DNA of 64,000 nt from Alphaproteobacteria bacterium (GTDB lineage Bacteria > Pseudomonadota > Alphaproteobacteria > RF32 > CAG-239). Within the stretch, counting starts at the first letter, position 1, and every line of letters starts with the position of its first letter. Positions 52,700-61,518 of this stretch are shown here, one piece after another. Both the position numbers and the translations under genes were made by a program. The notes below the pieces were generated by a model. That model was not told where the DNA came from. It saw nothing but the letters and a program-made list of their open reading frames with translations, and searched no databases. The stretch is taken from NCBI GenBank assembly GCA_017445475.1, contig JAFSUB010000005.1, forward strand, positions 20,124 to 84,123. The letters run 5' to 3'.

Positions 52700-53260
52700 A
52701 TGACCATTTTATACATCAATGCCTGCGTGCGTGAAAATTCAAGAACCGAAATTTTGGCGCAACATCTTATCAAAAAACTTCAAAAACCCGTTCAACAAAT
52801 CAATCTGGGACAAATTGCTTTGCTGCCTTTTAATCTTGAACTTTTGCAAAAAAGGAACGCTTTAATCAAAGCGGGCGCGCTTGATGATCCGATGTTTTCT
52901 TATGCGCATCAATTTGCCAACGCCTCTGAAATTGTTATTGCCGCGCCGATGTGGGATTTGTCTTTTCCCGCGCTCTTAAAAACATTTATTGAGCACATCA
53001 ATGTCGGCGGCATCGTGTTCAAATATTCAGGTGAAGGAAAAATTGTGCCGCTTTGCAAGGCCAAAACGCTTTATTACGTTACGACGATGGGCGGACATCA
53101 TCAAACCGATTTCGGATTCGGCTACATCAAAGCTTTGTGCCACACACTTTACGGCATCAAAGATGTTCGGCTCATCAAAGCGGAAGGCCTCAACATTATC
53201 GGCAACGATGTTCCGGCCATCTTAGAAGAAGCCAAAGCACAAATTAACACCATGTTTTAA
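52700..53260 (+). CDS. flavodoxin-like fold NAD(P)H-dependent oxidoreductase
   Basis: MTILYINACVRENSRTEIL N-terminus is typical of FMN-dependent NAD(P)H reductases (Flavodoxin_2 family). Confidence 0.6.
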   Translation: MTILYINACVRENSRTEILAQHLIKKLQKPVQQINLGQIALLPFNLELLQKRNALIKAGALDDPMFSYAHQFANASEIVIAAPMWDLSFPALLKTFIEHINVGGIVFKYSGEGKIVPLCKAKTLYYVTTMGGHHQTDFGFGYIKALCHTLYGIKDVRLIKAEGLNIIGNDVPAILEEAKAQINTMF

Positions 53261-54789
53261 CGCCCAATATCTTTGTGCTTGCCGCTTATGCAGTTTTGCC
53301 TTTTGATTTGCTCCCTGTCAACATAAATCACTTTGCCGCAACATGGGTTAAAATCGTCATTATCGTAAATCAGCCAGATGACATTGAGATTTTTCAAATC
53401 TTGACGCGGCATATCACCATATCCGTCCGTCAAAACAATTTTGTTAACTTTTTTATCTTTTGAAAACGCGCGCACAGCCTTGTCAATATCCGTTCCACCG
53501 CCACCTCGAATACGAAATTCATCAATATCTTTATTGGTCTTAATCTCAACAAAATCAAACACGCGGTGGTCAAACATACCGACTTTGAGCTCTGTTTCTT
53601 TTAATAAGGGTTTTAATTGGCGCAAAAAGTCCTTAAGCATATTGTTATCAACCGAACCGGAAACATCAAGCATCACCTCGGTTGTCGATTTATCCTCTGT
53701 TTCAACATCTTCAATGCGCGCACTGTAATCATTTGCACGCGATGCCCTGCGGTATGACCAGCGCTCTTCCTCTTCTTCAACCGATTTTTTCAAGGCTCGT
53801 TTCCAGTTGACAACTGCCTTAGCCTCGCCGACATCGCCAAACGAATCTCCTTCGTTATCAACCCGTTCTTTTGAAAGTTGTTCTTTGGCACGCTCCAAAG
53901 ATTCGATAATTTTTTTGGCAAGTTCTTCTTTTTCTTTTTTATTTTCTTCTAAAAAGCTCTTTTCTTCAGCATTATAATCAACATCTTCCTCTGGCGTTTC
54001 TTCCTCTTTACCATGAATGCGCCTCATAATTTTATCTAAAAGCGAAGGATTTTCACGGCGCTCTTTTTCTTTTTCAGCCTCTTCAACGGCCTCTTTCCAA
54101 ATCTCATGCGACGAATAGCCTGTTTGAGATTGTGCTCCTTGTTGTTGTCCTTCTTGGCTTTGATCTTGCTCTTGCTGCCCCTCTTGGCCGCCTTGCTGAC
54201 CGTTTTGGCCTTGCTCTTGATTCTGTTCCTGCTGCCCCTCTTGGCCACCTTGCTGACCATCCTGTTGTTGGTTTTGGCCGTCTTGGTTTTGCTGTTGTCC
54301 ATCACCTTGCTGACCGTTTTGGCCTTGCTCTTGATTCTGCTCTTGCTGCCCCTCTTGCTCTTTTTGCTTTTCCTCGCGTTCTTTTAAGAGTTTCTCATAC
54401 ATTTCTTCGGCAGATTTGCCCAAAGCTTCCGGCATATCAACACCGCCTTCAATCATCGGCAGATTTTCCGATTTCAAGATTTGATTAATCACCGAATCTG
54501 TTGCAATGTTCCAAAGCCCTGGCTCTTTATCTTTTGAGCGCATAATATGGTCAAATGCCACATGACAAATCTCGTGCGCAAATAAAAACGTCTGCCTACC
54601 GTCGTCTAAGGTGTGCAAAAATGAAGGCGAATAAATCACTTTTTTGCCGTTTGTGGCAGCCGTACCGATATTGTCATTGGCTTCAAAATCAAGACCGCGC
54701 ACAACAGAGCCCAAACGCGGAAATTTTCGCAAAACCGCATTTTTAATCTCCTGCACTTCTTTTTTTTGTTCCAATGTCAAGGCTGCCAT
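53257..54789 (-). CDS. VWA domain protein with N-terminal putative metallopeptidase (DUF2201-like) region and central Q/E/G-rich repeat
   Basis: HEICHVAFDH (HExxH). DVSGSVDNN MIDAS motif in the C-terminal VWA domain. About 100-aa QEQNQEQGQNGQQGG low-complexity tandem repeat. Confidence 0.7.
   Translation of the reverse strand: MAALTLEQKKEVQEIKNAVLRKFPRLGSVVRGLDFEANDNIGTAATNGKKVIYSPSFLHTLDDGRQTFLFAHEICHVAFDHIMRSKDKEPGLWNIATDSVINQILKSENLPMIEGGVDMPEALGKSAEEMYEKLLKEREEKQKEQEGQQEQNQEQGQNGQQGDGQQQNQDGQNQQQDGQQGGQEGQQEQNQEQGQNGQQGGQEGQQEQDQSQEGQQQGAQSQTGYSSHEIWKEAVEEAEKEKERRENPSLLDKIMRRIHGKEEETPEEDVDYNAEEKSFLEENKKEKEELAKKIIESLERAKEQLSKERVDNEGDSFGDVGEAKAVVNWKRALKKSVEEEEERWSYRRASRANDYSARIEDVETEDKSTTEVMLDVSGSVDNNMLKDFLRQLKPLLKETELKVGMFDHRVFDFVEIKTNKDIDEFRIRGGGGTDIDKAVRAFSKDKKVNKIVLTDGYGDMPRQDLKNLNVIWLIYDNDDFNPCCGKVIYVDREQIKRQNCISGKHKDIGR
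54126..54360. repeat. imperfect tandem DNA repeats encoding the Q/E/G-rich linker of the VWA protein
   Basis: Units such as CCTTGCTGACCGTTTTGGCCTTGCTCTTGATTCTG(T/C)TC(C/T)TGCTGCCCCTCTTG recur at 54196-54247 and 54312-54358, with shorter GNCCNTGCT periodicity throughout. Confidence 0.6.
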
Positions 54790-54798
54790 TTTTGCCTC

Positions 54799-55167
54799 CT
54801 ACAACTTCACACTTAAGCACCACTCTTTGAGCTTCGGATTCAGTTTTTTTACACTTAAAACCGGCACGACAATCTGCACCGTATCCGGCAAATAAGCACC
54901 GCCAAGCCCTCTGTTTTTGAGCAAATTTTCAAATTTGAGTTGTTCGGCCAAATCCAAAGCATCTATTCCATCTAAAACAAGATATTTTTTGCCTTTCAAA
55001 AATTTCAGCCACACATCTTTGGTATAAAGCATACGTTCCTCAACACTGCCTGACATCACATACGCGTCTTCAAAATCCCCGGCTTCGGCACCTTCAATAA
55101 TTAAAGGCCACTTGGCATTGTTTTTTAAAACCTCATCCAGTTTTTCTTTTTGCTTTGAACTAATCAT
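54799..55167 (-). CDS. hypothetical protein (122 aa) between the AAA+ ATPase and VWA genes
   Basis: ORF. Overlaps the ATPase gene stop by 8 nt. Likely co-transcribed. Confidence 0.4.
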   Translation of the reverse strand: MISSKQKEKLDEVLKNNAKWPLIIEGAEAGDFEDAYVMSGSVEERMLYTKDVWLKFLKGKKYLVLDGIDALDLAEQLKFENLLKNRGLGGAYLPDTVQIVVPVLSVKKLNPKLKEWCLSVKL

Positions 55168-56692
55168 TATAACCTCCCTCTCTGGCTTTTAATTGGCTGA
55201 TTTGTATCGCGCGCTCGGCATTACCTTGAACCCATTTAGAATCGAACACTGCAAGATTTTCTTTTCCGAGCTCCGAACCGATAAAATCTCGCACTTTTGA
55301 AACATCTTTTTCACTGACTTGGAGTAAACTTAATGACAGGGCTAATCTTGCATCTGCTTCATACGGAATATCATCTCTGTCGTATGTCCCTTCCAACAAA
55401 TCTTCCAAGCCCATCGGCGGATTGAGAGCAAAATCACTCAAATCCATAGCTAGTTCAGCACCTATTTTATTTGCTATCAGCTCTTGCCTTAAAACGCCGT
55501 CGTTGGCATAAATAACATCGGAGATCATTTCCCACCCGCGCGGCGTTAAAGGCAACTTTTCGGGGTTATTTTCATCAAACGGTTGATGAAAAACTTCCAT
55601 GCCTCTTGAGGCTACATAGGCTGAAATCAACGGATGAACATTCAAACGCTCCGGATTATCCTTGCTTTTTTCGGCGCCCCATTCAAGCCATTCGGCAATA
55701 TTCGGCTCTAAATGTATATGCCCGACCATACGATCAATTAAGGGCGCCGGCATATCATAAGCGGCTGTTGAATCGCTGACCTCATTGCCAGCCAACGCAA
55801 TCACCACATTGTCCGGCAACTTTCCTTTATTCTCGGCAATGGAATGCTCCAGCACAATATGATAAATCAGGCTCTGCACGGTCGGTTTGGCATTTGTAAC
55901 TTCATCGATAAACAACACATGGTTTTTATCGGGCTCTTCTTCACATTTTTTCTTTAAGGAAAGGTACCAATCCGGCGCTTCCCAAACGGCGCCGCCGTCG
56001 TCTTTATAACGCGTCTTACCAACCACATCTTCAGGGAGCATTCCGTTGCATAACGTAATCGGTGTCAAATCAGGATCGATTTGTTTAATACGTGCCGATT
56101 TACCGACACCCGCCGGCCCGTGCAACATAAAGCTTTGCTTGGCTTTAACATAAAACGCTATCTGATCTTTAACGCTCATCTCTTTTTCTTCAACCTTAAC
56201 GCCAAACTTTGCGCGTCGGCGTGCCATTTTTTCTTCCCGTGTCATTTTTGGCGCATCATTTTTTGAAACAACCTCCTCGGGTGCCCTTTGTTCCTGTCTT
56301 TGATATTCGCGGCTCGGCATCATCTGCGCTTCAAGCTCTTGCAGCCGCTGATACATATCCGTTTTTTCGAAATCTCCGTCATAGATTGACTTTCTGTCAA
56401 ATTGCACGCCTGCCAAAATCGCCTGCTTGGAAACCCATGTTCCGCTCCTGTCTTTAAGCCATTCGACAGGCTCAACCTTAACCCAATAGGCTTTGCCTTC
56501 CTCAGGTCTTTCGCCGTTTGATAAAATCGAACCTTCATTGGCCACTTTGGCCTCTATTCTGATATATTTTTCGCCGCCGTATGTGTATTCGGCGCTTGAC
56601 CTTTTTTGATATGGTGTGTCATAATCATTTAATTTTGCCGAATCGAAAGTGTAATTCTTTCCCGTTTTTTTAAGCTGTCCCTGCCGATACAA
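55160..56692 (-). CDS. MoxR-like AAA+ ATPase (AAA_5 family); annotated TTG start. The reading frame stays open upstream into the DGR variable repeat.
   Basis: Walker A GPAGVGKS, Walker B VLFIDEV, sensor ALAGNE, about 190-aa N-terminal region of unknown fold. There is no stop codon in this frame between 56692 and the VR. Confidence 0.75.
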   Translation of the reverse strand: MYRQGQLKKTGKNYTFDSAKLNDYDTPYQKRSSAEYTYGGEKYIRIEAKVANEGSILSNGERPEEGKAYWVKVEPVEWLKDRSGTWVSKQAILAGVQFDRKSIYDGDFEKTDMYQRLQELEAQMMPSREYQRQEQRAPEEVVSKNDAPKMTREEKMARRRAKFGVKVEEKEMSVKDQIAFYVKAKQSFMLHGPAGVGKSARIKQIDPDLTPITLCNGMLPEDVVGKTRYKDDGGAVWEAPDWYLSLKKKCEEEPDKNHVLFIDEVTNAKPTVQSLIYHIVLEHSIAENKGKLPDNVVIALAGNEVSDSTAAYDMPAPLIDRMVGHIHLEPNIAEWLEWGAEKSKDNPERLNVHPLISAYVASRGMEVFHQPFDENNPEKLPLTPRGWEMISDVIYANDGVLRQELIANKIGAELAMDLSDFALNPPMGLEDLLEGTYDRDDIPYEADARLALSLSLLQVSEKDVSKVRDFIGSELGKENLAVFDSKWVQGNAERAIQISQLKAREGGYND

Positions 56693-56820
56693 AGACTCAA
56701 GCGCCTTGCCGTTTGAGGCGATTGTTTGCGGAAACTCGCCCCATAAAACGGTTGGAACACCGTTTACGGGCCGCCCTGCCCTCGCTTCGCTCGGGCTGAT
56801 TTGTGATGTGAAAGATGATG

Positions 56821-57096
56821 TTAAAGCAGGGCGAACCGCCGGCAGCCGGGTGCTGGGACCATGGCGTCCTTGCAGCCGTCGCAGCTAACGGTTCGAACAT
56901 CCCCGTCGCCAGACGCCGAAGCCGACCAAAGATAGCCTGCAGGCTTGCCGTCAGAGGCTTGATAATCTTGATCTTGCCAACCACCCAAAAGAACGGCTAA
57001 ATCTGAAAGCGAAGCTGCGCGCATAGCATCATCTCGCATAATCTCTAAAGCCTTACTGCCCCAAAGTTCTTCTGCTTTTAACAGTGTCATTGCCAT
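56821..57096 (-). CDS. DGR variable (target) protein as currently framed: 91 aa with the VR forming its last 36 codons. Likely the frameshifted 5' part of a larger target gene.
   Basis: GAAGGAGAC RBS 6 nt before ATG 57096. The 3' 109 nt are the VR. The stop TAA abuts the end of TR/VR homology. Confidence 0.7.
   Translation of the reverse strand: MAMTLLKAEELWGSKALEIMRDDAMRAASLSDLAVLLGGWQDQDYQASDGKPAGYLWSASASGDGDVRTVSCDGCKDAMVPAPGCRRFALL
56823..56931 (-). repeat. DGR variable repeat (VR)
   Basis: 109 nt homologous to 58401-58510. All roughly 23 substitutions occur where the TR coding strand has A. One base is missing relative to the TR, also at a TR-A position. The GC-rich 3' end GCCGGCGGTTCGCCCTG is conserved in both (IMH-like). 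Confidence 0.85.
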
Positions 57097-57168: not shown

Positions 57169-58365
57169 TCATTTTTTTATTTTTTTCATCTTCCGAAAAG
57201 CCTTTTTCACATACCGCATTTCTTTTGTCCCTTTCAAATGCGCTTCAAAAGCATTTTGCCGAACCCGAAGATATTCATCACCGATAAAACCCTGTTTATA
57301 ATTTTTTTCAATCGCTTTAATGTAATGCCGCTCACGCCTTTTGGCCGAACCCCTGAGATTTTTGATAATTTTACCGCTTGCGCTCATTTTGTGGTTAAAA
57401 CCCAAAAAATCCAATCCGTTTTTTATTTTGCCAATCTGCGTTTTTTGGTTAAGTTCCAGCTTTAAATTTTCAGTGCAAACTTTTCTTATCATCTGAAGAC
57501 AATATTGCAAATAAGCTTTATTCTCGCCGAGCAAAATAAAGTCATCCATATAACGCACGTAATATTTCACTTTGAAACGCTCTTTAACCAACCTGTCAAT
57601 TTCATCTAAATATAAAAGCGCAAACCATTGGCTCGTCTGGTTTCCGAGCGGCAAACCGATATTGCCGTGCGATTTAATCAGCATTTTCATAAAAAGCATA
57701 TCATCTTCATCAAAGCCGCATTTTTTGAGTTTTTGAAGCAATATATCGTGATTGATGTTTTGAAAATATTTTTTGATGTCGCACTTTAAAAAATAAAATT
57801 CATTGCTCCCTATCTTGATGAAAAGCCGCCGCATAAATGTATGCAGCCTTTTTATGGCAAAATCTGTTCCCTTGCCTTTTCTGGAAGCCGCATTGTCATA
57901 AATTAAACGATTCTCTAACTTTGGTTCCAAAACATTTTTGCAAAAACTCATCAACACGACTCGGTCTTTATAAGGCAATGCTTCAATCAGGCGAACTTTA
58001 GGGTCATGAATGTAAAACGAGCGGTATTTGCTCACGCAATATTTGGCAGATTCTAAGGATTGATTGAGTTTAACCAAATTTTGCCCAAGCTCAATTTCAA
58101 ACGAAATTGTTGCGCGTTTATGCTGTTTGCTTTTTCGGCAAAGTTTGTGCGCCTTGTGCAGGCTTTGAAATGTCAAAAAGTCCTCTGTCATCGAAAATAA
58201 AAAAAGAAACATCCGATAATACATCAAAACAAAAGCTTGTGTCAATGTATGTGATGTTTCAAAAACACCGAAGCATTTTTTGTTCTTCCTCGCCTTAAAA
58301 AAAACGAGGAAAAGAAAAAGTTTCCTTTGCTTTCGGCTCGGGCGAATTTTACTTAAAACCCGCAA
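57169..58365 (-). CDS. DGR reverse transcriptase (probable true start near MTEDFL, about 58191)
   Basis: RT motifs including LGNQTSQ (the DGR-specific I/LGxxxSQ) and YMDD. N-terminal alignment to Bordetella phage Brt begins at MTEDFLTFQSLHKAHK. The upstream 58 codons are low-complexity. Confidence 0.9.
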   Translation of the reverse strand: MRVLSKIRPSRKQRKLFLFLVFFKARKNKKCFGVFETSHTLTQAFVLMYYRMFLFLFSMTEDFLTFQSLHKAHKLCRKSKQHKRATISFEIELGQNLVKLNQSLESAKYCVSKYRSFYIHDPKVRLIEALPYKDRVVLMSFCKNVLEPKLENRLIYDNAASRKGKGTDFAIKRLHTFMRRLFIKIGSNEFYFLKCDIKKYFQNINHDILLQKLKKCGFDEDDMLFMKMLIKSHGNIGLPLGNQTSQWFALLYLDEIDRLVKERFKVKYYVRYMDDFILLGENKAYLQYCLQMIRKVCTENLKLELNQKTQIGKIKNGLDFLGFNHKMSASGKIIKNLRGSAKRRERHYIKAIEKNYKQGFIGDEYLRVRQNAFEAHLKGTKEMRYVKKAFRKMKKIKK

Positions 58366-58400: not shown

Positions 58401-58510
58401 AAATCAGGGCGAACCGCCGGCTTTCGGTTGTTGGGATTATTGTCGTTCTTGTTGCCGTTTTAGTTAACGGTTTGAACATTTCCGTTGTCATTCGCCGAAG
58501 CCGACCAAAG
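58401..58510 (-). repeat. DGR template repeat (TR)
   Basis: 110 nt. On the minus strand it reads in one frame with 11 AAY codons (AAT/AAC) and is adenine-rich at every position where the VR differs. Located between avd and the RT. Confidence 0.85.
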
Positions 58511-58532: not shown

Positions 58533-58976
58533 TCAAACCCGTTGTTTGTTTTCTTTTTGAGCCCACCTTTCATCATCGCTTTTTTTCCACGCCGCAGTCA
58601 GGCCGATGACCTCTGAAACCTGAAGCGCAATTTGTTTATATTGCCTTTCCGTAATACATCCGGCGCCCTGCGCCGTCATTGAAACATAAGAAAGCAACTT
58701 TAACTTAATGAGGGCATTGTGTTGATGATTTTCACGCAAAACTTTATTTTCCGGTGTATCCAGTTTGATAAAATTTGCCCTAAGCAAACTTTCAACCACA
58801 TCCAAACAAAAATTTTGCATGCGATTAACAAAGACACCCCTGAATTTTGCCGGCGATTTCAAAGTTATTGTCATCACGTATTCGCCAAGTTTTTTAGCCT
58901 GCGTGATAACAAACAAATCACTGCCGCCGGCGAAAGATTGCATCTCAAAAACACCGGACTTTTCTGACATACTCAT
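58533..58976 (-). CDS. avd: DGR accessory variability determinant (Avd), four-helix-bundle protein
   Basis: 147 aa. C-terminal ITERQYKQIALQVSEVIGLTAAWKK aligns with the bAvd/TIGR02436 family. Positioned immediately 5' of the TR. Confidence 0.7.
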   Translation of the reverse strand: MSMSEKSGVFEMQSFAGGSDLFVITQAKKLGEYVMTITLKSPAKFRGVFVNRMQNFCLDVVESLLRANFIKLDTPENKVLRENHQHNALIKLKLLSYVSMTAQGAGCITERQYKQIALQVSEVIGLTAAWKKSDDERWAQKENKQRV

Positions 58977-60061
58977 TTGCTTTTGACTCTCAGAGCCGTT
59001 TCCATCACTTTTTGCGCAAGATTGCGGTTATTTGTCATCTTCAAATCGGCTTTTTGCATTGCGGTTTCGTAAATTTTTCGATTGTCAAAAACCTTGTCAA
59101 TCACCCTTAAAAACTGCGCCGAATCGGTTAAATCCTCGTCTTTGATGATTTCGCAAAAACCCTTGGCGGCAAAAGATTTTGCATTCAAACCCTGCTCACC
59201 TCGGCTTGAACTTGACGGCAGAGGCACCAAAACCATCGGTTTTTTGAGACTCAACAACTCAAAAATGGCGTTTGATCCCGCACGCGACACCACAACATCG
59301 GCCGCTTCCATTAAATCTTTAAATTCCGTATCGACATAGTCAAACTGCTTATATCCTTTTGCCTTAACGCTTTCGTCGGTTTGACCGCGCCCGCAGATGT
59401 GTATCAGCTGATATTTTTTTGTAAGTGCCTCTAAATTTGAACGCACTGCCTCGTTTAAGGTTTTTGCGCCAAGCGAACCGCCGACAAACATCAATACCGG
59501 CTTGTTTTCATCAAAGCCGCACAAACCGCAGCCCCTCTTTTTGTCGCCGCCCTCGAATCTGTCCGACAGAACGGGGCCGATATAATCTACTTTTTTCTTG
59601 TTTTTCACATATTTAATCGTGTCGTCAAAGGTTGTGAAAAACCGGCTCACAAACGGCAACGACATCTTATTTGCAAGGCCGGGGGTAACGTCCGATTCGT
59701 GCATAACCGACTTAACGCCGCAAACAAAGCCCGCCAACACCACCGGAAACGACACAAACCCGCCTTTTGAAAAAATGATGTCCGGCTTTTCTTTGAGCAC
59801 AATACAAACCGCCTGCACAACACCAACCGGAATTTTGAGCATATCCAAAAAATTCTGCCACGAAAAATAGCGCCTGAGCTTGCCGGTTTGAATGGCGTGA
59901 TATTGAACCTTGTCGAACTTTTTGATTAAATCGCGTTCAATGCCCGTTTTTGAACCGACATACGAAACCTTCCAGCCTTTTTGCAAAAAAAACGGAATAA
60001 GCGCCAAATTGAGCGTTACGTGCCCTGCACTGCCACCGCCCGTAAAGATAATTTTATTCAT
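58973..60061 (-). CDS. murG: MurG-family GT28 glycosyltransferase (UDP-GlcNAc transferase)
   Basis: FTGGGSAGHV, VGGSLGAKTLN, ADVVVSRAGSNAIFELL...VLVPLP align to MurG motifs. Not in a dcw cluster. Confidence 0.6.
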   Translation of the reverse strand: MNKIIFTGGGSAGHVTLNLALIPFFLQKGWKVSYVGSKTGIERDLIKKFDKVQYHAIQTGKLRRYFSWQNFLDMLKIPVGVVQAVCIVLKEKPDIIFSKGGFVSFPVVLAGFVCGVKSVMHESDVTPGLANKMSLPFVSRFFTTFDDTIKYVKNKKKVDYIGPVLSDRFEGGDKKRGCGLCGFDENKPVLMFVGGSLGAKTLNEAVRSNLEALTKKYQLIHICGRGQTDESVKAKGYKQFDYVDTEFKDLMEAADVVVSRAGSNAIFELLSLKKPMVLVPLPSSSSRGEQGLNAKSFAAKGFCEIIKDEDLTDSAQFLRVIDKVFDNRKIYETAMQKADLKMTNNRNLAQKVMETALRVKSK

Positions 60062-61424
60062 TTGAAACCCTTTCTTCATATTCGATTAAAACATTATTAT
60101 CTGTTTTTAAGTCTATGTTTTTACTTGTTTTTGCACCTTTGTCTTTAAGCTGATGCGCAAACGAAATTGCCCCGCCTCTGCCCGAAAGTTTTGTCATTGC
60201 GTTTTCATAGTGTTTGTGTGTTGTTTGAAGCGATTTATCAATCTGTTCCATATCTTTCACAAATCCCGCAAGCTTATCATATATCTTGCCGCCGATTTCG
60301 GCCAATTCGGCCGCGCTTTTGTTGCGCTTTTCTATTTGCCAAAGGTTTTCTACCGTGCGCAAAAGCGGCAACAGCGACGAGGGCGTCGTAATGGCAATGT
60401 TTTTCTTAACTGCATAATCATACAGGCTTAAATCTGACCGAACCGCCTCGACATAAGCGCTTTCAATGGGGATAAACATCATCACATAGTCAAGTGTTTG
60501 ATCTTTCAAAAGCTTCTGATATTCCTTACCGGAAAGCTCGTCGATGTGCTTTTTTATCGCATTGATATGCCGCTTTAAAGCCTCGCTACGCGCCGTTTCA
60601 TCTTCGGCATTCACATAAGCCACATAATCATTAAGCGAAACTTTGCTGTCAACAATAACCTGACGCTCATCAGGCAGACGGATAACCACATCGGGACGCA
60701 ACATTTCATTGTTTGCACCGCGAAAAGTTTCCTGCTCGAAATAGTTGATTCCTTTTTCAAGCCCCGAAATTTCAAGAATGCGCTCAAGCTGAAACTCGCC
60801 CCAGTTTCCTTGAATTTTTTTGTTTCCTTTCAATGCGTTGCTTAAATTAGTTGCTTCTTTACTTAAACTTTGATTCAAATCAAAAAGGCTTTTAATCTGC
60901 GCATCAAACTTGATTCTGTCATCATGGTTTTCTTCCATTTTCTTTTTAAGTTCGGCAAGCTTTCCTTCAAATGGTTTGAGAATCAAATCAAGCGCCGTCT
61001 TTTGATTTTCACCGAAAGCATTGTTCTGCGCCTTGATAATTTCGTTTGAAATGTCCTTAAACTTCAGGCTCATTTCCTCTTTGCTTTTTTCAATAAACGA
61101 AAGTTTTTCGGCCATATATTTTTCACGCAGCAGACAATCTGCCTTGAGGCGCTCGTTTTCTTTGACAAGCTCTCTGTTTTCGCAGGCAAGCTCGGCAAAC
61201 GCCTCCCTTTGAGCCGAAAGCTCATCTTCTTTAAGCCTGCGCCAAGCCTCATGTTCAACATCTTTTATTTGCAACATTTTGAGGCGGCGGTTTTGTTTGA
61301 CGTTCATACACAAAAACATCACCCAAAAGATGAAAAATAAAGCGCAACATATTGTAATTAAGACAAAAACATTTTCGTTTTTAGAGGCAAAAAATTCAAG
61401 CATATCTTTCTCCGTTGCGCTCAT
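60054..61424 (-). CDS. rmuC: DNA recombination protein RmuC (start at MSATEKDML preferred)
   Basis: N-terminal TM helix, long coiled coil. C-terminal RmuC nuclease-like region GNWGEFQLERILE...DVVIRLPDERQVIVDSK. Confidence 0.8.
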   Translation of the reverse strand: MSATEKDMLEFFASKNENVFVLITICCALFFIFWVMFLCMNVKQNRRLKMLQIKDVEHEAWRRLKEDELSAQREAFAELACENRELVKENERLKADCLLREKYMAEKLSFIEKSKEEMSLKFKDISNEIIKAQNNAFGENQKTALDLILKPFEGKLAELKKKMEENHDDRIKFDAQIKSLFDLNQSLSKEATNLSNALKGNKKIQGNWGEFQLERILEISGLEKGINYFEQETFRGANNEMLRPDVVIRLPDERQVIVDSKVSLNDYVAYVNAEDETARSEALKRHINAIKKHIDELSGKEYQKLLKDQTLDYVMMFIPIESAYVEAVRSDLSLYDYAVKKNIAITTPSSLLPLLRTVENLWQIEKRNKSAAELAEIGGKIYDKLAGFVKDMEQIDKSLQTTHKHYENAMTKLSGRGGAISFAHQLKDKGAKTSKNIDLKTDNNVLIEYEERVSNE

Positions 61425-61518
61425 TGTGGCACAGCCTTCATTGATTTTCAAGCAAATTAAAAATTTCTGAACATAAAAAATCCCCCTTTTAATTTGTTTC
61501 AAAAGAGGGCGTTGCGTA

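Follow-up and report, generated by a model that had tools for sequence, protein, structure and literature searches.

A diversity-generating retroelement with a probable null allele in the N-terminal variable region of a MoxR-class ATPase from an alphaproteobacterium

Canonical diversity-generating retroelements (DGRs), such as those acting on Mtd of Bordetella phage BPP-1 and on TvpA of Treponema denticola, combine the accessory gene avd, a template repeat (TR) and a reverse transcriptase (RT) in one cassette, and the TR differs from the variable repeat (VR) of the target gene at adenines only. Here we describe a locus of this kind in a 64,000-nucleotide stretch of DNA from an alphaproteobacterium (GTDB lineage RF32, CAG-239; GenBank assembly GCA_017445475.1, contig JAFSUB010000005.1, positions 20,124 to 84,123), referred to below as the window. 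Judged from its sequence, the locus appears to be a complete DGR (avd, TR, RT) with a single target, a predicted cytoplasmic protein of ~645 residues, whose VR has lost one base in what is probably a null allele of the DGR's own making. It shares with the Mtd and TvpA systems an apparent Avd-TR-RT cassette, the adenine-only differences, a GC-rich VR end resembling the initiation of mutagenic homing (IMH) sequence, and a VR at the C-terminal edge of a putatively lectin-like scaffold. In contrast to both, the scaffold lies at the N-terminus of a 645-residue protein, so that the IMH region is coding (RPAL); the order is TR-RT-target; and the TR holds stop-prone codons and an in-frame TAA, rather than AAY codons alone.

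DUF6273 has been described as a C-type-lectin-like DGR scaffold that can be N-terminal in the phage “tentaclins” (Baykov et al. 2023, PMC10743442). As in tentaclins and the DUF6273 targets of gut phages, the VR of the window target sits on an N-terminal domain, here a putative DUF6273/C-type-lectin-like one, followed by other domains, in a gut-associated setting. However, tentaclins continue with Ig or Fn3 domains and are phage surface proteins, whereas the window target is a fusion to a MoxR-class ATPase encoded in a chromosomal operon. The locus also resembles the MoxR-vWA (VMAP) ternary conflict systems (Kaur et al. 2020, PMC7159879; Dore et al. 2023) in combining a DGR-diversified, putatively lectin-type sensor with a MoxR protein and a VWA protein; a cytoplasmic location is predicted for those systems, which have been proposed to sense invaders (PMC7159879; bioRxiv 10.1101/2023.09.22.558884). 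In the VMAP systems the VR-bearing FGE/CLec domain is located at the C-terminus of the vWA protein or in a separate target, VMAP is the third component, and the hosts are multicellular cyanobacteria or Chromatiales. By contrast, the VR module of the window is attached to the N-terminus of the ATPase, the partner protein combines DUF2201_N and DUF2201, the third gene encodes an unrelated 122-residue protein, no VMAP was found in an analysis that had no VMAP model, and the family is found in gut Alphaproteobacteria and Firmicutes. We do not place the window locus in the VMAP ternary conflict system family. An AAA-type ATPase is likewise combined with a variable domain in the CLec-AAA/P-loop NTPase targets of the candidate phyla radiation (CPR) and DPANN (g1/UVR4 of Wu et al. 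2018, PMC5758913), in which the NTPase motif lies upstream of a C-terminal VR, the reverse of the order in the window target. In the literature searched, no MoxR-type ATPase with a VR module at its N-terminus is described, and there was nothing relevant on DUF2201 in a DGR context or on ON/OFF switching driven by a DGR.

All relevant genes of the locus lie on the minus strand, in the order Avd-like open reading frame (ORF), TR, RT, 91-residue ORF, ATPase ORF, 122-residue ORF and DUF2201 gene. The TR (58401..58510), located between avd and RT, pairs with the VR (56823..56931), and as the original prediction had stated, the VR is one nucleotide shorter, with 109 nt against 110 nt. Of the 36 adenines in the TR, 23 are substituted in the VR (14 to G, 6 to C and 3 to T), one is missing and 12 are kept, while the non-adenine positions show zero differences; hence 24 of 24 differences fall at TR adenines. 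The gap (56861..56865) fits any of three adenines in GACGACAAT, that is, VR positions 56865/56864 through 56862/56861. As every possible placement coincides with a TR adenine, the earlier claim that the missing base lies at such a position holds for all three. The 16-18-nt ends of the repeat each occur exactly twice in the 64-kb window (chance expectation 0.01-0.06), indicating one TR and one VR; no second VR for this TR was found elsewhere in the window. At its 3' end (56823..56842) the VR carries the GC-rich, IMH-like segment CCGGCGGTTCGCCCTGCTTT. The triplet after the GC-rich CCGGCGGTTCGCCCTG is GCT in the VR but GAT in the TR. This difference, at the RP[D/A]L position, is fixed as GAT in the TR and GCT (Ala) in the VR in every related DGR locus. 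It behaves as an IMH/IMH* marker, and by this sequence criterion the predicted IMH region would be coding here. A BPP-1-like hairpin or cruciform downstream of the VR was not supported when 56760-56850 was folded as DNA (z=-0.57 against shuffles); such a GC hairpin or cruciform is not universal among DGRs.

The reading frames change at the gap in the predicted manner. The 91-residue ORF (57096..56821) keeps the AAY frame of the TR up to the gap, beyond which the AAY frame is that of the ATPase ORF. The latter frame is open from 56884 to 55160 (574 codons) and reaches 64 codons upstream of the annotated start, TTG 56692; the original prediction was correct about its openness, but its figure of 46 codons is too low. 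Insertion of one base gives an uninterrupted product of 645 residues with the VR at residues 56-92, in close agreement with the single protein of about 646 residues and the VR position that had been foreseen.

A search with this repaired protein returned more than 60 homologues of 640-660 residues, at 98-100% coverage and 41-53% identity, which indicates that the fusion is the normal gene. Residues 1-78 of the 91-residue stub (56821..57096, from ATG 57096 to an out-of-frame TAA) align with the N-termini of 650-residue homologues, and the homologues continue from the stub into the 574-codon frame (55160..56884); the stub is thus the true 5' end of the target gene. In an alignment of 45 sequences, the stretches read in the repaired frame beyond the lesion (AVRPAL, SxxSKIxPSEAR, YGEYPQT and LExLY) are among the best conserved, with R89 invariant and P90 nearly invariant. 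A homologous locus (L006) presents the intact arrangement, in which TR and RT are followed by a 658-residue target with a gap-free 113-nt TR/VR pair at the equivalent position. Both the full-length homologues and this orthologous cassette agree with the earlier proposal that the VR ORF and the MoxR-like ATPase are one protein. The current annotation, which covers only 55160-56692 as a 510-residue “AAA family ATPase” starting at TTG 56692, should accordingly be corrected: this protein and the 91-residue hypothetical protein are two pieces of one DGR target.

We propose that the frameshift arose in the last mutagenic retrohoming event, during which the RT-Avd complex, while copying the TR, would have placed wrong bases at 23 adenines and passed over another. 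The resulting cDNA would have replaced the VR and left it out of frame, splitting the gene into a 91-residue stub and a 5'-truncated ATPase frame annotated from an arbitrary internal TTG. Since avd, TR, RT, the 5' homology and the IMH-like end are all intact, another round of retrohoming could restore the frame, and the null allele is probably reversible. That the RT itself made the deletion fits earlier observations, as frameshifting TR/VR indels have been reported in 11 of 372 DGRs, mostly beside AAC, with RT slippage as the proposed cause (Wu et al. 2018, PMC5758913). A single-base deletion is thus an already known kind of DGR by-product. What is new is an N-terminal VR module on a MoxR-class ATPase whose gene belongs to a three-gene operon conserved among gut bacteria, together with stop-prone templates and frequent null alleles whose lesions are confined to the VR.

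Null alleles of this type are common in the family. A scan of species-representative genomes gave at least 263 tblastn-confirmed matches, the best 80 of which were fetched and combined with loci in hand to a set of 86. The fetched loci come from gut and rumen metagenome-assembled genomes (MAGs) of Alphaproteobacteria, Bacilli, Clostridia and Tenericutes. An RT match is present upstream of the target in 32 of the 86 loci, corresponding to 30 unique loci after removal of two duplicates (L001, a duplicate of the window, and L018, a duplicate of L006); about a third of the related loci thus carry an Avd-TR-RT cassette immediately before the target. A TR/VR pair was found in 23 of these 30, with mismatches essentially all at adenines and with the VR always at nucleotides ~160-280 of the target (residues ~54-93), within the N-terminal module. 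Stops or frameshifts occur in the VR of 10 of the 30 RT-linked loci, but the 28 loci that lack an RT and include the N-terminus have none (Fisher p=8e-4). Three of the ten have frameshifts: the -1 of the window, a +2 accompanied by an AAG to TAG change in L019, and two +1 insertions at A runs in L022. The other seven have in-frame stops, several each in L007 and L034 and a single one each in L009, L016, L053, L060 and L085. The lesions cluster within the 37 VR codons and are seen only where the RT is present; every lesion-bearing locus has an RT with YMDD and SQ motifs and no stops. The VR lesion is the sole lesion of the gene in nine of the ten null loci, the exception being L034, which carries further stops and a frameshift elsewhere in the gene and is decaying there too. 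The indels of L019 and L022, and of L171 and L174 described below, also lie at or beside TR adenines or A runs. A metagenome set added six more DGR loci, five with full-length RT and a sixth, L103, whose RT is partial; among the six, L141 has a stop in its VR. As in the length differences described by Wu et al. (2018, PMC5758913), the frameshifting indel of the window lies beside an adenine-rich TR codon; compared to that survey, however, the rate is much higher in the present family, with frameshifts in 3 of 23 species-level loci and nonsense codons in 7 more, and both ON and OFF alleles are documented within one species.

This species is that of L007, represented by the 90% protein cluster P0005, and its TR is identical in every locus examined. 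The cluster has 15 listed members, comprising four full-length proteins with four different VRs, 10 N-terminally truncated gene calls and one fragment of 214 residues. We fetched seven loci with truncated calls, two of which do not include the N-terminal region. All five inspected loci, together with L007, carry six different null VRs from different samples: TGA in L168 and in L169, TGA plus TAA in L170 and in L007, a -1 deletion of a TR adenine in L171, which is the same kind of event as in the window, and +3 and +1 insertions in L174. The OFF gene calls of this species consist of an RT, a stub of 76-102 residues and an ATPase of 549-592 residues, mirroring the 91- and 510-residue products of the window. 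These null alleles are independent products of retrohoming, not assembler noise.

Two other sources of in-frame stops were considered and rejected. Decoding of TGA as Trp (genetic code 4) does not apply, as the in-frame stops of the target are confined to the VR along the whole tblastn alignment and several alleles also have TAA, TAG or frameshifts. A chimeric assembly of TR and VR would retain the stops of the TR as they are; instead the stops are themselves adenine-mutated (TAA to TGA or TAG), and their flanking codons are mutated as well.

The templates themselves are prone to generate stops. The literature stresses a “no-nonsense” AAY design of TRs (PMC12875486; bioRxiv 10.1101/2023.09.22.558884), from which the TRs of this family depart: each has 3-6 stop-prone codons (AAA, AAG and AGA, with TAA or TGA in some). 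Eight of the 23 TRs (window, L007, L009, L010, L044, L053, L060 and L085) have an in-frame TAA or TGA in the VR register, as does the TR of L141 from the metagenome set, and stop-bearing TRs occur in both Alphaproteobacteria and Firmicutes. The window TR, which reads LWSASANDNGNVQTVN*NGNKNDNNPNNRKPAVRPD when translated in the VR register, contains an in-frame TAA (58460..58462; TGC at 56881-56883 in the VR) and two AAG codons. Its estimated chance of yielding a stop per retrohoming is between 0.29 under a uniform spectrum and 0.60 under the pooled empirical spectrum of the family, in which adenine is kept in 54% of cases and changed to G in 23%, to T in 13% and to C in 10%. Applied to the 19 gap-free TR/VR pairs, the pooled spectrum predicts 7.0 loci with at least one stop, and 7 were observed, from a small sample in which some TRs are common to related species and the spectrum is estimated from the same data. 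The agreement gives no sign of purifying selection against null VRs in the consensus sequences.

Mutation at its adenines turns a TAA codon into one for Trp, Tyr, Phe, Leu, Ser or Cys, or leaves it a stop. Among the TAA-derived VR codons that are still stops, TGA was counted seven times (L007, L009, L060, L141 and L168-L170), TAA twice and TAG once (L085, L171 and L174), while TAA should be the most frequent according to the pooled spectrum. Three of the four ON alleles of the L007 species have TGG as the TAA-derived codon. The excess of TGA and TGG could be due to a context-specific A-to-G bias or to selection for Trp.

The original prediction left three options for the deletion, namely an OFF state, a pseudogene or an assembly error. 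The first fits best, and we consider it probable that the window carries a real, recent OFF allele made by the DGR, with RT-Avd copying the TR at the cost of 23 mis-incorporations and one skipped adenine. The deletion was judged from assemblies and consensus sequences, and the record is a MAG. DGR VRs are often heterogeneous in populations, and collapsing such a population could have removed a base from a true in-frame VR of 110 nt. Nevertheless, an independent Logan assembly, made with a different assembler, has an unbroken 8-kb contig in which the VR is identical and shows the deletion too, and all three contigs on record encode identical 91- and 510-residue products. No homopolymer is present at the deletion site GACGCCATGG, single-base changes in length do not readily arise in De Bruijn assemblers, which connect real k-mers, and the same class of lesion, each time a different one, recurs in nine other species representatives and in six samples of one species. 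An assembly or sequencing artefact is thus unlikely. Also unlikely is a dead-end pseudogene, with the target (perhaps along with the DGR) in the course of loss and the frameshift as the first disabling mutation to be fixed. The RT remnants left at many related loci and the decay of L034 are compatible with such loss, but the window has no other lesion in the 1.9 kb of target or in the RT, TR, avd or two downstream genes, its lesion sits at a TR adenine in a VR otherwise heavily mutated at adenines, and the lesions of the family keep to the VR codons of RT-bearing loci. Hardly credible at all is an arrangement in which this organism normally makes two products, a small peptide with the VR and an ATPase translated on its own. 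Annotation pipelines do call two genes of 91 and 510 residues; yet the split is absent from homologues except where the VR has a stop or frameshift, the annotated TTG falls inside the conserved LExLY block, a clear Shine-Dalgarno sequence is missing before it but present before ATG 57096 (GAAGGAG), and the final 13 residues of the stub are out-of-frame sequence unlike the family.

Several points nonetheless weigh against a DGR-made null allele. The three contigs possibly come from one read set or source sample, and a consensus artefact in a heterogeneous VR is possible. A base could likewise be lost through replication slippage without any part of the RT, and a currently active DGR that restores the frame is hypothetical in the window lineage. 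The matches of the Avd-like ORF fall under the curated cut-offs of both profiles (Pfam bAvd, E=1.5e-4 and 22.7 bits against a cut-off of 40; NCBIfam DivGenRetAVD, E=9e-6 and 25.9 bits against 80). PADLOC assigned no known defence family to the ATPase, the 122-residue protein or the DUF2201 protein, and NCBIfam gave nothing useful for them, so that a sensor/effector role rests on analogy. A stronger form of the null-allele reading, which we find rather doubtful, is selected phase variation, in which the DGR would not only diversify the target but also switch it ON and OFF stochastically. Through stop-prone TR codons (in-frame TAA, AAA and AAG) and adenine-linked indels, many cells of a population would then stay OFF, which might reduce the cost or self-toxicity of an ATPase/peptidase system. 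The in-frame stops in TRs of both Alphaproteobacteria and Firmicutes, their departure from the usual AAY design, and the P0005 species, whose inspected truncated calls were all OFF through VR lesions, speak for such a switch. However, the nonsense frequency equals the neutral expectation, weak selection with a sloppy template would give the same frequency without an adaptive switch, and the stop codons of the TRs could be drift in an untranslated template. By analogy with phase-variable contingency loci and with pilin antigenic variation, which also gives non-piliated variants, hypermutation here would yield both new variants and presumably reversible nulls; in the DGR, by contrast, the process is templated retrohoming rather than repeat slippage or gene conversion.

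The target consists of an N-terminal, putatively DUF6273/C-type-lectin-like module, the last ~37 residues of which are the VR, a beta-rich continuation and a MoxR-class AAA+ ATPase. The AAA+ core (55726..56131, P-loop GPAGVGKS) matches Pfam AAA_5 at 24.3 bits (cut-off 22) and AAA_3 at 23.1 bits, the latter under its cut-off of 27. The AlphaFold2 model of an intact homologue (P0043) has a predicted local distance difference test (pLDDT) score of ~90-97 at residues 1-260 and a confident AAA+ part, whose best PDB matches are the MoxR-class proteins NorQ, CbbQ2 and CHU_0153. A stand-alone homologue of the N-terminal module (P0125) was modelled with a pLDDT of 92.6 and a predicted TM-score (pTM) of 0.88. 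The C-terminal half of Pfam DUF6273 (PF19789) matches the distant full-length homologues P0085 and P0113 above cut-off at residues 13-109, but gives no match to the window protein or to P0043. A BFVD fold search of the N-terminal module returned no significant match, and in the search with the full-length model AAA+ matches dominate and leave this module uninformative. No signal peptide is evident on the window target. The variable scaffold thus appears conventional, in that the VR closes a probably lectin-like (DUF6273-type) module; unusual is merely where in the protein this module stands. The original prediction, which set the VR apart from the usual C-terminal location, was right in that it occupies residues 56-92 of 645, but did not recognize that it still ends a lectin-like module.

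Other architectures occur among the homologues. In P0110 and P0121-P0141, proteins of ~270-360 residues, short basic or helical tails replace the ATPase behind the N-terminal VR module and the beta-rich module; these could be stand-alone versions or truncated genes. The ATPase part is duplicated in one protein, or present as two tandem paralogues, in P0002 (1024 residues), L046, L083, L086, L074 and L077. The same C-terminal half of the ATPase is found under other N-terminal modules, such as BspA-type LRR_5 or ankyrin repeats, in P0089-P0091 and P0086, which suggests exchangeable sensor domains on one ATPase chassis.

The Avd-like accessory gene (58533..58976, 147 residues) sits directly upstream of the TR, with the size and position expected for a DGR avd. 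The RT (57169..58365; RVT_1 E=7e-20) is an intact ORF from TTG 58365, with ATG 58176 as its likely start, giving 335 residues; it has the YMDD and DGR-typical SQ motifs, contains no stops and shares 50-73% identity with the RTs that immediately precede homologous targets. Downstream of the target are a conserved gene of no known family (54799..55167, 122 residues) and the gene of a 510-residue protein (53257..54789) that combines DUF2201_N, a putative metallopeptidase with a HEICH motif, and the VWA-like DUF2201 (Pfam E=2.6e-23 and 1.1e-14). The order RT, target, small gene (116-156 residues) and DUF2201 gene is conserved, with the VWA-like protein encoded two genes downstream of the target both here and in every homologous locus inspected. 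Within the DUF2201 gene, four tandem repeats of 57 nt (54134-54383) encode a Gln/Glu/Gly-rich low-complexity linker (QEGQQEQNQEQGQNGQQG...) that joins the peptidase-like and VWA-like domains. Directly upstream of avd (58973-61502) are a MurG-like glycosyltransferase (family 28) gene and rmuC; ordinary chromosomal genes surround the cassette, with no phage genes nearby.

In many Firmicutes-type loci only an RT fragment, often corresponding to residues ~237-337, is left upstream of an intact target (L059, L065, L076, L084, L120-L123, L126, L127, L130, L133, L136, L138, L139, L149, L160, L162 and L167), and no TR was found in the four that were checked (L059, L065, L076 and L084). Such remnants beside intact targets indicate that the DGR is frequently lost. 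In L057 (CAXHMP010000024.1), the target is without residues ~70-295, and the break starts inside the VR with a change of frame; either a large deletion has removed this part from the VR onwards, or the contig is misassembled.

Altogether, these loci define a widespread family of gut bacteria in which a DGR diversifies the N-terminus of a MoxR-type ATPase, and through them the association of DGRs with MoxR/VWA “conflict” systems now includes Alphaproteobacteria and Firmicutes that live in animal guts. By analogy with those systems, the target may act as a hypervariable intracellular sensor that drives a MoxR/VWA-peptidase module. The textbook rule that DGR templates avoid nonsense is challenged by this family, in which stops and frameshifts are routine and null alleles appear at about the neutral rate. 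We put forward, as a tentative idea, that the DGR doubles as an ON/OFF switch that would keep a large, reversible null fraction of the sensor-MoxR fusion in every population. If so, a TAA codon in the template would open access to Trp, Tyr, Phe, Leu, Ser and Cys at the price of nonsense, and its frequent TGA outcome might also give a leaky state of low expression. The family thus raises the question of whether the DGR targets of cellular hosts are under continuous selection, or form a contingency reservoir that is mostly OFF.

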